From a virus (Duplodnaviria; Caudoviricetes): a DNA stretch of 64,000 bases. This document shows, piece by piece, positions 5,257-64,000 of the stretch (position 1 is its first letter; every line of letters starts with the position of its first letter). A program made the position numbers and the translations under genes. The notes under the pieces were generated by a model, which saw only the letters and a list, made by a program, of their open reading frames with translations, was not told where the DNA came from and did no database searches. The stretch is taken from the IMG/VR virus record IMGVR_UViG_3300033074_002135, positions 6,445 to 70,444 of that record. The stretch is one strand, 5' to 3'.

Positions 5257-5623
5257 CGCTGAACGATCATTCCTGATCGACGTGTACCTCGGGATCTACG
5301 AGCACCACCAGATCGAGTACCGAGCGCTCTCGGCGAAGACCTCGCGTGCCGATGCACCCCGCGACCAGCGCGCGCTCGACCGGATGGCGGAGCTTCGTGC
5401 GCTCATCGACGCGCAGCCACTCGCAGGAGTCCCGTTCTACGCGTCGAAGATCGCGGTGTGGCTCAATCCCTCTCCGACGCAGTCGCGCCTCCTGACGATG
5501 CGCTCGATCGTCATCCCGCAGGCGCAGGGCTGGATCCGCAAGTGGGATCGCGACGACGTTGCCGATGCGCTCCCCGAGCTGTACGACGCCGCCGTGGTCC
5601 TCAGCAGTCTGGGGGCGCCATGA
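5249..5623 (+). CDS. Hypothetical protein (124 aa)
   Basis: Overlapping start/stop with neighbours. Confidence 0.7.
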   Translation: MTDAERSFLIDVYLGIYEHHQIEYRALSAKTSRADAPRDQRALDRMAELRALIDAQPLAGVPFYASKIAVWLNPSPTQSRLLTMRSIVIPQAQGWIRKWDRDDVADALPELYDAAVVLSSLGAP

Positions 5624-6087
5624 CCAAGCGCTTCGATCCAAACTGGACCGAGGCGGGCTCGGTCCTCGCAGGCGCTCACGGCGCGCACATGCGCCCGCCA
5701 CCTGCCGGACTACTCGAGCCGACGCCTGAAGAGCTCGAGGCGTTCTGGGTGGCTTGGCACCACAACACTCAGGCTGCGAAGGCAGCGCTACGCGGCTTCG
5801 AGCAGAAGATCAAGTGGCTGGACGGGGCGGGGCAGCTCAAAGGCAACTGGGTGCAAGAGCGCGCCGTCGAGGTTGTGGCCGCTGAGATCGCGCTCATCAA
5901 CAACCCGCACCTCATCCGCCGAGTGCCATTCCCGCCGATCGCCCTGCTGCGCCACAGGATCTCGCGCGGGTTCGCCGGGTTCTGTGGCTGGATCGAGGAC
6001 ATGGGACGTCCGGACCTCATCACGGCAGAGATGCTCGCAGCGGCCGAAGTGGACCGCGCGCTCAACGAAGGGAAGAATGCATCATGA
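5620..6087 (+). CDS. Hypothetical protein (155 aa)
   Basis: ATGA-coupled start at 5620. Confidence 0.7.
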   Translation: MTKRFDPNWTEAGSVLAGAHGAHMRPPPAGLLEPTPEELEAFWVAWHHNTQAAKAALRGFEQKIKWLDGAGQLKGNWVQERAVEVVAAEIALINNPHLIRRVPFPPIALLRHRISRGFAGFCGWIEDMGRPDLITAEMLAAAEVDRALNEGKNAS

Positions 6088-6275
6088 AGAAAGTCGACAC
6101 CGGCCGCCTCAGCTCGGCACAACCGCGCCTCCAGAACATTCCGATCCGCACCGAAGAAGGACGACGCATCCGCGAAGCCTTCGAGCCCTCGACGCCGCTG
6201 CTCGTCGATGCCGACTACCCGACGATGGAGCTGCGCTTGCTCTCCGAGCTCGCTCGCCAGAAGGCTCCGAAGTGA
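6084..6275 (+). CDS. Stand-alone mini protein homologous to the DNA polymerase I palm segment (motif 2 to motif A)
   Basis: TGRLSSAQPRLQNIPIRTEEGRRIREAF...DADYPTMELR parallels Pol I [28 protein letters not shown]...SADYSQIELR; ATGA/GTGA coupling at both ends. Confidence 0.85.
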   Translation: MKKVDTGRLSSAQPRLQNIPIRTEEGRRIREAFEPSTPLLVDADYPTMELRLLSELARQKAPK

Positions 6276-7000
6276 TCCCCCGCAAGTTCATCCTCAGCCC
6301 GCACACCTTCGCTGCGGCGGAGCAGTGTGCGGCCGCACGCGTCTACCGCGGCGAGAAGCAGCCGCCCTCACACGCGATGTGGCACGGCATCGCGGTGCAC
6401 CGCTTCCTCGAATACACGTTCAAGTTCGGGCGTGAGTATGCGGTCAACTACATCCGATCCAAGTTCAAGAACCGCGCGAAGTTCTGCGAGGCTCTCGATC
6501 TGTCCGGCATCCCGGCGGGTGACCCAGAGCCCCAGTTCGTCCTCGACCCTCGTGAGGAGTACGCGATCCTCGTCGACGCTGGCGCGGTGCGCGCTGAGGC
6601 GTCACCGAAGCAGCACGTGATCGTGAAGGGCGACCTGCTCGTCGCCGGTGAGGCGTGGGCGATCGACTTCAAGACCGGCGAGCACCCGGTCGACTTGGAC
6701 ACCTCGCCACAGGCGATGCTCGAGGCGCTGGCGGTGTGGCTGCACTGGGCGCGGCCCGCCAAGGTGCGCACCTCGATCTACCGCATCCGCAAGGAGCCGC
6801 AGCCGCCGACCCACAAGGACTGGACCGCGGCCGAGCTCGAGGTCGCGCTGAAGCGCGTGCGCCGCGTGCACCTCCAAGTGCTCGAGACTCGCGCCGAGTT
6901 CTACAAGGAAGGCGTGCAGCCCGAGTTCACGCCGGGCGATCACTGCTACCGCTGCGACACGCGGCTCACGTGCCCGGAGGCTCCCGGTGCGCGCGAGTGA
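6272..7000 (+). CDS. PD-(D/E)XK RecB/Cas4-like exonuclease
   Basis: N-terminal SP..EQC and HGIAVHRFLE; GDLL..AIDFKTG; C-terminal CYRC..TCP (putative Fe-S ligands); GTG start 6272. Confidence 0.85.
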   Translation: MIPRKFILSPHTFAAAEQCAAARVYRGEKQPPSHAMWHGIAVHRFLEYTFKFGREYAVNYIRSKFKNRAKFCEALDLSGIPAGDPEPQFVLDPREEYAILVDAGAVRAEASPKQHVIVKGDLLVAGEAWAIDFKTGEHPVDLDTSPQAMLEALAVWLHWARPAKVRTSIYRIRKEPQPPTHKDWTAAELEVALKRVRRVHLQVLETRAEFYKEGVQPEFTPGDHCYRCDTRLTCPEAPGARE

Positions 7001-7205
7001 GGCGCTCGCAGAGATCGACACTGACGAGCTCTCGCGTGAAGAGCTCGAGCGGCTGGTGAAGCTCCGACGCGCAGTCGCGCTGCTCGAGGAAGCTGAAGAC
7101 GCAGACGCAGACTCCGGTGCTGGGCGCGCTGCTCACGGAGCGCTGCGTTGGATCGTGTACTACGTGAAAGAGGCTCCCGATCGAAGAGCCTGGAGGCGCC
7201 GATGA
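6987..7205 (+). CDS. Hypothetical protein (72 aa)
   Basis: GGAGG RBS before GTG; ATGA overlap downstream. Confidence 0.6.
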   Translation: MRASEALAEIDTDELSREELERLVKLRRAVALLEEAEDADADSGAGRAAHGALRWIVYYVKEAPDRRAWRRR

Positions 7206-61618: not shown

Positions 61619-62376
61619 CACGGCACCCCCAGGATCTTGTGCGTCTGCAGCGAGAGCCGCCACGCCGGGTTGCGCATGACCCACGCAGCGGCTTGCGACT
61701 GCGTCTGAGCGTGGATCAGGCTGCGCCCGATATCGCTCGGGAAGACCGACGCCTTCGGCTGCACGAAGAGCCTGACGTCGCCGAAGTGGTTGCCCGAGTC
61801 CATGTCCGCGCGGTCGGCGTAGAGCTTGCGGAAGTGGTGCCAGTAGATGTCGGGGTCGTAGTCGGGGAAGACGACCTTGAGCTCGGTGAGGTACTGAAGC
61901 TGCAGCTTCTCCGGTCGCACCTTCGGGGAGCACGTGATCTGCAGCTCGCGCCGCCTGAGCGCGCGCAAGAGGATCTCGCTCTCGGGAAGAGGGCGAGTGC
62001 CGTTGGTCTCGATCGAGATCGACTCCGCGGCGGTCCCCTGCTTGAGCGCGAGGTAGAGCTCTTCGCTGAACTGCAGCAGCGGCTCGCCGCCTGTGAGGAC
62101 GATCAAGGGCAGGCGCCTGCCGCCGGTCTGACCGTGAAAGTGGTGATTGACGGTCGACACGAGGTCCTCGAGCGTGAGGTGCTCGCGAGCCTGGAAGTCG
62201 GTGTCGCACCACAACGGGCAGTCCGCCCCGTTGCGCGCGGCGTCATCGGCGCGCGTCTCGGGCGTGTTGCGCCAGAGGTTGCAGCCCGCGAACCGAATGA
62301 ACATCGCTGGTGTGCCGGCGTTCGAGCCCTCGCCCTGGAGGGTGTAGAACACCTCACTGATCGCGTACTTCTTCAC
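61618..62376 (-). CDS. queE: 7-carboxy-7-deazaguanine synthase (radical SAM)
   Basis: EVFYTLQGEG..GTPAMFIRFAGCN, CDT, LTGGEP, IETNG, TCSPK, FVQP, WRLSLQTHK. Confidence 0.95.
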   Translation of the reverse strand: MKKYAISEVFYTLQGEGSNAGTPAMFIRFAGCNLWRNTPETRADDAARNGADCPLWCDTDFQAREHLTLEDLVSTVNHHFHGQTGGRRLPLIVLTGGEPLLQFSEELYLALKQGTAAESISIETNGTRPLPESEILLRALRRRELQITCSPKVRPEKLQLQYLTELKVVFPDYDPDIYWHHFRKLYADRADMDSGNHFGDVRLFVQPKASVFPSDIGRSLIHAQTQSQAAAWVMRNPAWRLSLQTHKILGVP

Positions 62377-62420
62377 GTTGCCCTCTCTTCCTTCCTTGGC
62401 TTCCGCGCCGCGGGTGTTCT

Positions 62421-63134
62421 TCAGGCGAGCTTCTCGGGCGCCATCCGCTCGAGGTAGTCCTTGCAGATCGCGATGAGCGCGTCGCTGTCCGTCGGCGCGC
62501 CCAGCCGCCGCGCGATGCTGATCGCGCTCTGGATGATCCCCATGCCCGAAGAGCGCGTCGTGATCTTCAGCTTCACTTCGGGGCCCTGCTGCTCGACGTC
62601 GACGCCGGTCGCGTCGGGGGTCGCCTGCGCCTCGGGGGGCATCTCGAGCGTCGTGAGGTCGAAGTCGGCGATGTCGAGGAAGCGCTTGAGCTCTTGGTCG
62701 GAGTACGGCAGCACCGCGAGCAGGTCGACGTCCTCGTCGCGCAGGCTCTTGATCAGGTCCGCCATCAGCGTCGTGTCGGGCTCGCCGCGCGTCTCGTTGA
62801 GCACGACGGTGAGCCGCTTGGCGTGCGCATCGGGAATCTCTCCGAGATTGATCACCGTGATGTTGGAGTAGCCCTCCGCGATGGCGGCGCGAAAGCGATG
62901 CTCGCCGTCGACGATCTCGAAGCCCGGAACACCCGGCACCACGCGCACAGTCACCGGGTCGACGAAGCCGAACTCTTTGATCGAGGCGCGCTCACGCTCG
63001 AAGATGAACTCCGACTGCTTGTTGGGGTTCCACGGGTTCGGCCGCAGCTCCGTCACCGAGACAGTCATCGTTTCGATCGCGGTCGCCGGGGCAGTCGTCG
63101 AGGGCTTCGTGGCTTCGGTCTTCTTCTTCGTCAT
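62421..63134 (-). CDS. ParB/Sulfiredoxin N-terminal domain protein
   Basis: LRPNPWNPN, SIKEFGFVDPVTV, IVDGEHR, VLNETRG. Confidence 0.9.
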   Translation of the reverse strand: MTKKKTEATKPSTTAPATAIETMTVSVTELRPNPWNPNKQSEFIFERERASIKEFGFVDPVTVRVVPGVPGFEIVDGEHRFRAAIAEGYSNITVINLGEIPDAHAKRLTVVLNETRGEPDTTLMADLIKSLRDEDVDLLAVLPYSDQELKRFLDIADFDLTTLEMPPEAQATPDATGVDVEQQGPEVKLKITTRSSGMGIIQSAISIARRLGAPTDSDALIAICKDYLERMAPEKLA

Positions 63135-64000
63135 AGCGTGTACTCCTTCACGGGGTGTGGCGTGATCTTCTTGTCGAGCCACTGCTGGTAGTCCGCGAAC
63201 GCCACGGCGGTCGCGAGCATCTGCAGGTCGTTGGTTCGTCGAGTCGCTGACGGCTCGATCTTGAGGCGGTAGCGCGACTGCACGATTGCGCACCAGTCGT
63301 CGAAGCGCTTGGCGCGCTCCTGCGCCGCCGGGGACAGGGCGCGGTTGCGGGTGCTGCCGCGGATGGCTTCGCAGCGCTCGAGCTTGCCCGGAGTGTGGTG
63401 CATGAAGCCGACGCCATACATGCTCGTCGCGATCCACGATGTCGAGTCGCAAGACCACGCGAGCGACGTCTCCATGAGACGCGGGATCGTGCAGCCGAGC
63501 AGATGGATCCGCGGGTAGTTGTTCGGGCCGACGTTGCGACGCACGTGCTCGAGGAGCCTGAAGACGCTCTCGGTCTTCCCCGACTTCGCGGTCCCACCGC
63601 CGAGGATGCGTAGCTCGGGCACGGAGAGCGCGATGTAGCTCTTGCTCTTCGCGAGCTCGATGAGACCGTCGATGCCTTCGGGCGCGTGCCACGTGTAGAT
63701 CACGCGGTCGCCGAGAGGCTTGAACTCCTCGCGAAGCCGGTGCGTCGCGTCCATGCCCAGCAGCTTGTGGGTGTCGCACTCGACCAGCATCCCGCGGTAG
63801 CCGTAGCGATCGAGGATCTCGAGGTAGCTTCGGGTGTAGTCGCGGTATGCCTCGAAGGTGGGCTCGATCTGCCCTTTCTTCGTCCCGAACATGAACGAGT
63901 AGAGACCTGAGTCGATGATCATTGACTCCGGGTCGCGCGAGGCGAGCGTCGCCCCGAGCTTCGGGTTCACCTCGAGGATGCTGTTCAGGCGCCACGGATG
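63131..64000 (-). CDS. TGT-like/DpdA-like base transglycosylase (5' end beyond the window)
   Basis: IIDSG..SF, ECD, YTWH, YIALS, IHLLG, SCDSTSW; frame is open to position 64000; adjacent to ParB-like gene and queE. Confidence 0.75.
   Translation of the reverse strand, partial: HPWRLNSILEVNPKLGATLASRDPESMIIDSGLYSFMFGTKKGQIEPTFEAYRDYTRSYLEILDRYGYRGMLVECDTHKLLGMDATHRLREEFKPLGDRVIYTWHAPEGIDGLIELAKSKSYIALSVPELRILGGGTAKSGKTESVFRLLEHVRRNVGPNNYPRIHLLGCTIPRLMETSLAWSCDSTSWIATSMYGVGFMHHTPGKLERCEAIRGSTRNRALSPAAQERAKRFDDWCAIVQSRYRLKIEPSATRRTNDLQMLATAVAFADYQQWLDKKITPHPVKEYTL

Follow-up and report, generated by a model that had tools for sequence, protein, structure and literature searches.

A 63-codon open reading frame (ORF) in the genome of a tailed phage (positions 6084-6275, plus strand) is a genuine stand-alone piece of the active site of a Pol I-type DNA polymerase. 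It encodes a fragment of the palm of a family A enzyme, and lies between an orphan gene, U, and a gene for a Cas4-like nuclease. Judged from sequence comparisons, this mini-ORF is somewhat more probably than otherwise a selected, functional gene that does not make a polymerase: a reused (exapted) palm fragment that would work together with U. The estimate covers the existence of such a gene, and attaches to no single mechanism. One alternative is a nonfunctional relic, in which approximately 180 bp of host or phage polA, captured or left behind by recombination, stays open and passes ribosomes to the nuclease gene. A relic is a real possibility, at distinctly less than even probability.

The phage is represented by a linear IMG/VR record (IMGVR_UViG_3300033074_002135; 70,444 bp, approximately 80% complete, 67% GC) that encodes a baseplate-J protein, an SPP1-type portal, and a terminase. 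Coordinates refer to the window, the whole 64,000-nucleotide stretch analyzed (positions 6,445 to 70,444 of the record), unless another contig is named.

An intact reading frame for part of the palm

The earlier note on this DNA had described the mini-ORF as an intact gene, and this description is confirmed: it has its own start and stop codons, and its ATG is the first start codon past an in-frame stop at 5883-5885. Both ends overlap adjoining genes. The start overlaps the stop of U (5620-6087, plus strand; 155 residues, mostly helical) as ATGA, and the stop overlaps the start of the nuclease gene (6272-7000, plus strand; 242 residues) as GTGA; direct reading of the sequence verifies both overlaps, which had been reported previously. 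The ATGA overlap of stop and start suggests translational coupling, and the tidiness of the two junctions argues against a relic. A Shine-Dalgarno-like element noted by sequence reading, GAAGGGAAG (6067-6075, plus strand), ends 8 nt 5' of the mini-ORF ATG. Another, GAAGG (6260-6264, plus strand), sits within the mini-ORF 3' end, 7 nt 5' of the nuclease GTG. The role of each element is putative.

Base composition points to the same frame. GC contents at the first, second, and third codon positions of the mini-ORF are 0.67, 0.46, and 0.81, typical of genes in this genome, and at this locus only the mini-ORF frame shows a coding-type GC3. In the overlapping frame by which the nuclease gene could be extended, the third positions are the second positions of the mini-ORF (GC 0.46). 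The longer nuclease start in that other frame (ATG 6077) is judged to be unused, because nuclease homologs begin at the position equivalent to GTG 6272. The mini-ORF itself starts with an AT-rich stretch, encoding MKK, within a genome of 67% GC. The Shine-Dalgarno-like site, the ATGA and GTGA overlaps, the MKK start, and the GC3 signal in frame together favor a selected gene.

Additional sequences cover the locus. An independent Logan contig (X1), although it may derive from the source sample, is identical to positions 5400-7100 with zero differences. In sludge metagenomes, close relatives are represented by partial contigs that span the junction of U with the mini-ORF and the greater part of the mini-ORF itself. 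These differ by substitutions only, with no indels; the ATGA junction is retained in a relative diverged by 5%, a further point against a relic. A fusion of U with the mini-ORF through a -1 frameshift was considered and rejected: the junction contains no slippery heptamer, and no indel occurs in independent contigs. Mini-ORF variants in near-identical relatives (low-depth contigs) number three nonsynonymous (K3R, S11L, and M48L) versus two synonymous; S11L lies within TGRLSS. These variants are too few to show constraint, and the absence of a clear synonymous bias fits a relic. Variants of U in close relatives are mostly synonymous (approximately nine, versus five to six nonsynonymous).

The match to Pol I extends from motif 2 (TGRLSS..LQNIP) through motif A only, a claim of the earlier note that is borne out by both Pfam and Klenow alignments. 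Residues 5-60 align with positions 117-174 of the 381-position model PF00476 (E 8.9e-19; 68 bits, for a cut-off of 34 bits), and alignment with the Klenow fragment gives approximately 60% identity (E 2e-14). The mini-ORF corresponds to residues ~665-722 of E. coli Pol I Klenow, 58 of the approximately 400 residues in the polymerase domain; its best identity to cellular Pol I is up to 72%. Motif 2 in the Klenow alignment (TGRLSSAQPRLQNIP; 6099-6143, plus strand) retains the equivalents of R668, Q677, and N678 (R8, Q17, and N18), with R15 in place of N675. The adjoining sequence, IRTEEGRRIREAF (6144-6182, plus strand), is a predicted helix of the cellular Pol I type and includes the R682 equivalent, R22. 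Motif A (DADYPTMELR; 6207-6236, plus strand) retains the catalytic Asp, as had been stated (D44, equivalent to D705), along with the E710 equivalent, E49, and carries the changes S707P, Q708T, and I709M (P46, T47, and M48).

Column frequencies were taken from 79 distinct Pol I segments. Relative to this panel, the mini-ORF retains 30 Pol I-conserved residues and departs from five. Four changes, N15R, S46P, Q47T, and L62P, fall at columns that are 100% conserved among the 79 segments; the first three (N675R, S707P, and Q708T in Klenow numbering) are seen in 0/79. Such departures favor a relic, as signs that the polymerase constraint is gone. That so many Pol I-invariant residues are retained is equally compatible with recent capture, which counts against a selected gene.

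E. coli Pol I has a thumb, fingers (motif B), motif C, and an exonuclease domain; the mini-ORF has none of these. It ends 12 residues past motif A, without motif B (O-helix R..K...F..Y) or motif C (HDE). The absence of thumb, fingers, and motif C, together with the changes at Pol I-invariant residues, upholds the view that the product cannot polymerize alone. The AF2 model comprises two helices only (pLDDT 62) with no compact fold, another point against a functional gene. Within Pol I, the corresponding segment runs along the primer strand and the minor groove near the 3' end, and the role of R668 is established.

The earlier note had proposed looking for homologs of the same length. None was found among 5.8e9 proteins; the short matches stem from cellular polA broken by frameshifts or by contig ends. 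The 63-residue form is a singleton, which weighs against a selected gene and favors a relic.

Polymerase sequences in the record and in related phages

No degraded polA sequence lies beside the mini-ORF. Its flanks had previously been described as free of such sequence, and Pfam searches, tblastn, and profile-profile comparison all agree. Across the 70-kb record, approximately 80% complete, a PF00476 search at E ≤ 10 found no match besides the mini-ORF, and permissive tblastn with ten PolAs yielded nothing credible, neither complementary pieces nor other PolA sequence. Collinear weak matches of several Pol I queries to positions 62223-62735 (minus strand; fingers region, E 0.02-0.2) were discarded: they span the end of a ParB-like gene and the start of queE, cross a stop codon, and are probably compositional noise. 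Because the record is only approximately 80% complete, these searches do not establish that the genome has no other PolA.

The mini-ORF is not a frameshifted remnant of a neighboring polA, and its descent from a split polymerase is not supported. A split polymerase had been raised as an explanation, and would require completion in trans. Phage PolA genes do often break right after motif 2, several N-terminal halves in IMG/VR end there, and a partner might lie in the missing fifth of the genome. However, no other PolA piece is present in 70 kb at E ≤ 10, and the mini-ORF spans the usual break point instead of ending there. Moreover, N675R, S707P, and Q708T occur in none of the 79 Pol I segments, and the complete PolAs of related phages already include a motif 2 and a motif A. 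Completion in trans thus has a very small probability.

Known split PolAs of phages, whether in two-gene, intron, or intein form, pair an N-terminal half with a C-terminal half, whereas the mini-ORF has no exonuclease, thumb, or partner. The IMG/VR N-terminal halves (L041, L052, L060, L062, L063, L081, L082, and L106) comprise 377-523 residues and stop 7-15 residues after TGRLSSSQPNLQN. Some continue as ..CLDIF.., which resembles the start of an intein; these genes are broken at one common motif. The frame of a split PolA gene ends near motif 2, and the tail of a U homolog in one syntenic relative, described below, ends much like such N-terminal halves, of 377-431 residues.

The lineage probably has a polymerase of its own. 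The mini-ORF is not of that type: in gapped alignments it shares only 33-40% identity with the PolAs of phages whose relationship is indicated by terminase or Cas4 similarity. One relative, G005, has a helicase that is 69% identical to the helicase of this phage, and encodes an 899-residue PolA approximately 4 kb past the helicase and the gene that follows it. The same helicase and following gene are the last genes at the left end of the present record. By the G005 gene order, a different PolA belonging to this phage is expected approximately 4 kb beyond that end, and so a PolA of approximately 900 residues probably lies in the unsequenced part. The missing 20% of the genome is probably the replication core. 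Minus-strand DNA-metabolism genes are found at both ends of the record (1-832 of the genome and 63131-64000 of the window).

The motif in syntenic relatives

Syntenic relatives were found through the conserved neighbor, the Cas4-like nuclease. This PD-(D/E)XK protein matches PF12705 (E 7.5e-7) and phrog_69 (E 3e-11), and has invariant Cys residues at 19, 225, 228, and 234. Searches of cultured phages and of GTDB genomes returned no match to it, and the GTDB result leaves no prophage and no host clue. U, the Cas4-like protein, and the ligase, each used as a single-protein query against IMG/VR, gave no hits. Seven homologs of the Cas4-like protein were identified, at 47-71% identity. Their contigs share a gene order: MoxR-like ATPase, DUF2201/VWA protein, small genes, Cas4-like nuclease, small genes, and NAD-ligase.

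The two closest lineages represented by nucleotide sequence lack a separate mini-ORF. In L017 (71% Cas4 identity) and in L018-L020 (62%; three identical contigs of one phage), a U homolog of 147-148 residues abuts the nuclease gene. Each homolog carries a C-terminal in-frame tail with PolA motif 2 directly 5' of the Cas4-like gene: KTGRLSSTQPNLQNVSRT in L019, and GSLRSPNIQNFPSR in L017. Relatives at 47-52% Cas4 identity have neither U nor the motif. A further 62% relative, on an 86-kb Logan contig that carries P0246 (sample SRR12358676), has a 130-residue U that abuts the nuclease gene, and a separate 73-residue PF00476 gene on the opposite arm, between DUF6744 and a 194-residue/ParB_N pair. 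The presence of that separate gene elsewhere supports a selected fragment. The interval homologous to its site in the present genome (L002:2968-3613) has room for the 194-residue gene only.

The tails are shorter than the mini-ORF, and that of L017 is degenerate; such a set can be read as a decay series, against a selected gene and as a relic would predict. One way in which a relic could arise is recombination at the motif-2 homology that the tail of U already provides. However, no polA occurs at this locus in the syntenic relatives examined, and the PolA of the lineage lies elsewhere.

U itself is an orphan. A phmmer search against 1.84e9 representatives returned the L017 protein as sole relative (E 8e-17), and U has no match in Pfam, PHROGs, or the ESM atlas. 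When the U family with its tail was compared to Pol I by hhalign, the tail alone aligned (probability 98%), and so the idea that U is a diverged PolA thumb was abandoned. The AF2 model of the L019 protein (U plus tail) has a pLDDT of 49.6, too low for a fold search; complex prediction for U and the mini-ORF scored 0.11, which gives no verdict either way.

The motif is the best-conserved part of the U-tail protein, and its synonymous sites are saturated. Between the window and L019, 11/15 motif residues are identical, 10 of these 11 being specified by different codons. Nei-Gojobori estimates for the 15 motif codons are dN 0.21 and pS 1.0. Corresponding values are dN 0.82 and dS 1.42 for the U domain, and dN 0.31 and dS 0.78 for the Cas4-like gene. 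Measured against the 31% identity of U, the motif identity has a binomial P of 9e-4. The presence of the motif at one locus in three diverged phages, better kept than the U domain although synonymous sites are saturated, argues against a relic and in favor of selection on the fragment.

Conservation of this sort might instead reflect past polymerase function, if a full-length, functional polA formerly stood between U and the Cas4-like gene and was recently truncated in each lineage independently. Such truncations would explain the conserved residues, the saturated synonymous sites, and the differing extents retained. They also would require at least three independent losses, each sparing the same approximately 15 residues. 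No relative has polA at this locus, G005 places the PolA of the lineage approximately 4 kb past the helicase on the other arm, and the mini-ORF is only 33-40% identical to PolAs of more distant terminase or Cas4 relatives. Independent truncation is accordingly improbable.

Neutral simulation bears on the long form in this phage. At 0.27-0.4 substitutions per site, 13-17 of the 30 retained residues are expected to survive; actually, all 30 are present. This excess means either selection at the protein level or a young long form (d < 0.1) in this phage. The chance that an ORF of this size stays open over the same range, with substitutions only, is P 0.13-0.22, so the open frame alone is not decisive, and a relic could well remain open.

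Small PolA-like genes in other phages

The best-documented counterpart is gp221 of phage phiCbK, an 81-residue protein annotated in GenBank as "putative Pol I DNA polymerase, palm domain". The corresponding profile, phrog_12116 (81 positions), matches the mini-ORF with E 3.2e-8 (residues 7-57, profile positions 3-57). Orthologs of 78-83 residues are present in BL57, CcrBL10, CcrRogue, Ccr5, and others. Like the mini-ORF, gp221 is a stand-alone protein of fewer than 100 residues that begins at motif 2 (MGERLSKSEPPIQNIPIRTEAGR), contains motif A (IDFAEIEAR), and matches the same PF00476 segment (positions 120-170, E 8e-12). The Asn of PNLQN is missing from both, and both overlap adjoining genes at start and stop. 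In phiCbK, BL57, CcrBL10, CcrRogue, and Ccr5, gp221 always follows a GcrA-like gene, starting at its last base, and overlaps the next gene, which encodes a protein of 139-154 residues with no known function, by 4 nt.

Sequence reading also identifies a motif-C-like GRVHDEF in gp221. This family (L203:2492-2737; L204-L207) thus combines motif 2, motif A, and an HDE motif, and lacks the fingers region entirely. Its dN/dS is 0.28-0.33 at dS 0.5-0.6, which shows that the gp221 family is under purifying selection. phiCbK replicates with a T7-like polymerase, gp123, and the genome paper does not discuss gp221 (PMC3556154).

The likeness has limits. The C-terminal GR[VIM]HDE segment of gp221 is absent from the mini-ORF and from all frames just downstream, and the lack of the HDE motif kept by the phiCbK family counts against the reading of the mini-ORF as a selected gene. 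The neighbors differ as well: a GcrA-like regulator and a 141-residue unknown for phiCbK gp221, versus U and the Cas4-like nuclease here. U has no GcrA or other Pfam match, so the synteny is not that of gp221. The mini-ORF is approximately 41% identical to gp221 and up to 72% identical to cellular Pol I, over a 56-residue segment too short for a reliable tree. Because it is nearer to cellular Pol I than to gp221, common descent with the gp221 family is not established. Nevertheless, the gp221 orthologs share the segment, the start point, and a low dN/dS, which favors a selected gene; a start point that matches that of a selected family argues against a relic. The kind of gene is already present in public annotation (gp221, phrog_12116), although uncharacterized, and literature searches yielded no account of it. 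The mini-ORF is a shorter variant without motif C, in another neighborhood, with fused forms in relatives.

Other phages carry small ORFs with related sequence. L030 has a 57-residue ORF with SGRMSANVSNPNLQNLPIRTEEGRRIRELF. The IRTEEGRRIREAF string recurs in small ORFs of the unrelated viral contigs L027 and L028 (145 kb and 89 kb), and nearly so in L030. In the 164-residue ORF of L027 (2171-2665) and L028, a DIH..TA/R..AK piece precedes TGR..LQNIPIRTEEGRRIREAF; the motifs are out of order, with Pfam positions 183-225 followed by 115-149. The L027 ORF lies approximately 127 kb from the full-length PolA of that phage. The small ORFs of L030 and L027 are dissimilar to their own complete PolAs (42% and 47% identity, respectively). 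That phages with such small ORFs own a complete, dissimilar PolA again favors a selected gene.

G002, a complete 96.9-kb genome related by terminase, has a 160-residue ORF ending in TGRTSSSKPNIAQV. This ORF and a tandem paralog (L016:857-1671) are 39% identical, and only the second copy has the C-terminal TGRTSSSKPNIAQV extension. The N-terminus of the tail-bearing protein, ..IDFAGIEQRLVA, resembles motif A, so here too the motifs are out of order; a full PolA is encoded elsewhere in G002. Comparison of U with the tail-bearing domain revealed no significant similarity, and a relationship between them was dismissed.

The 57-residue ORF of L030 belongs to an array (L030:1538-3708; IMGVR_UViG_3300042542_004360) in which seven or more small ORFs on one strand all end in RG[EDW]HR[RS]EE.., for example ERGEHRREEEP. 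The DNA at this shared tag is of the GAGGAGGAG type and immediately precedes the next start codon, so the tag may be a repeated ribosome-binding or junction element that is translated as protein.

Two motif scans of IMG/VR provide context. A motif B 8-mer found 69 PolA matches, in long or contig-truncated frames, with 0 in small ORFs. This control is rough and imperfect; it suggests that small-ORF scraps are not general to conserved PolA motifs, and to that extent argues against a relic. The phage-type pattern TGRLSSxQPxLQN was matched 62 times, invariably in frames of 285 residues or longer; several of these frames are N-terminal halves of split PolAs that stop soon after the motif. The Q in QPxLQN had been considered a shared derived marker of common origin, and was dropped because QPNLQN is normal in phage PolAs.

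A literature search found no paper with "TGRLSS", and nothing specific on polymerase-fragment mimics or remnants. Polymerase genes of Caudoviricetes often are swapped in situ (Yutin et al. 2024, PMC11348598), and frequent swapping could leave scraps, as a relic requires. However, that study covers whole-gene replacements, with two divergent groups of full-size PolA; its text has no words for remnants or pseudogenes, and uses "fragment" only in "Klenow fragment".

Possible function and meaning

The balance of this evidence tilts, by a modest measure, toward an active-site fragment reused as a micro-protein, rather than a new polymerase or split enzyme. Mini-ORFs with their start exactly at motif 2 recur among phages, and this one would belong to that class. 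Its fragment appears to be functionally tied to U: fused in two relatives, encoded by adjacent ORFs here, and apparently separate and distant in one relative. The peptide would act in trans much as the segment does within Pol I, contacting the primer strand and the minor groove close to a 3' end, or it may instead occupy a partner able to recognize that Pol I surface. It would act with U, and perhaps with the Cas4-like nuclease, in early DNA metabolism, and may bind DNA ends.

A more specific proposal is that phages repeatedly keep a host-type Pol I primer-track micro-protein (..LQNIPIRTEEGRRIREAF.., with or without motif A or C) as a mimic. Such a protein might poison host Pol I at primer ends or compete with it there, or might occupy a host factor or an immune sensor; in this phage it would be a two-part system with U. 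This proposal is speculative, and we consider it unlikely in this full form. The earlier suggestions of a mimic or dominant-negative of host Pol I, or of a decoy for a polymerase-sensing defense system, are speculative as well.

If the mini-ORF is a relic, then it shows that polymerase scraps persist at gene junctions, and cautions against annotating such ORFs as "DNA polymerase". If instead the fragment is selected, then phages recycle a few dozen polymerase active-site residues into a new micro-protein, apparently more than once, whether as a free gene, in fusion with another protein, or in scrambled form. Genes would then arise in an unusual way, and the product might be a new kind of mimic for host takeover or anti-defense. 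phiCbK gp221 offers a counterpart in a cultured phage, whose Caulobacter host is genetically tractable.
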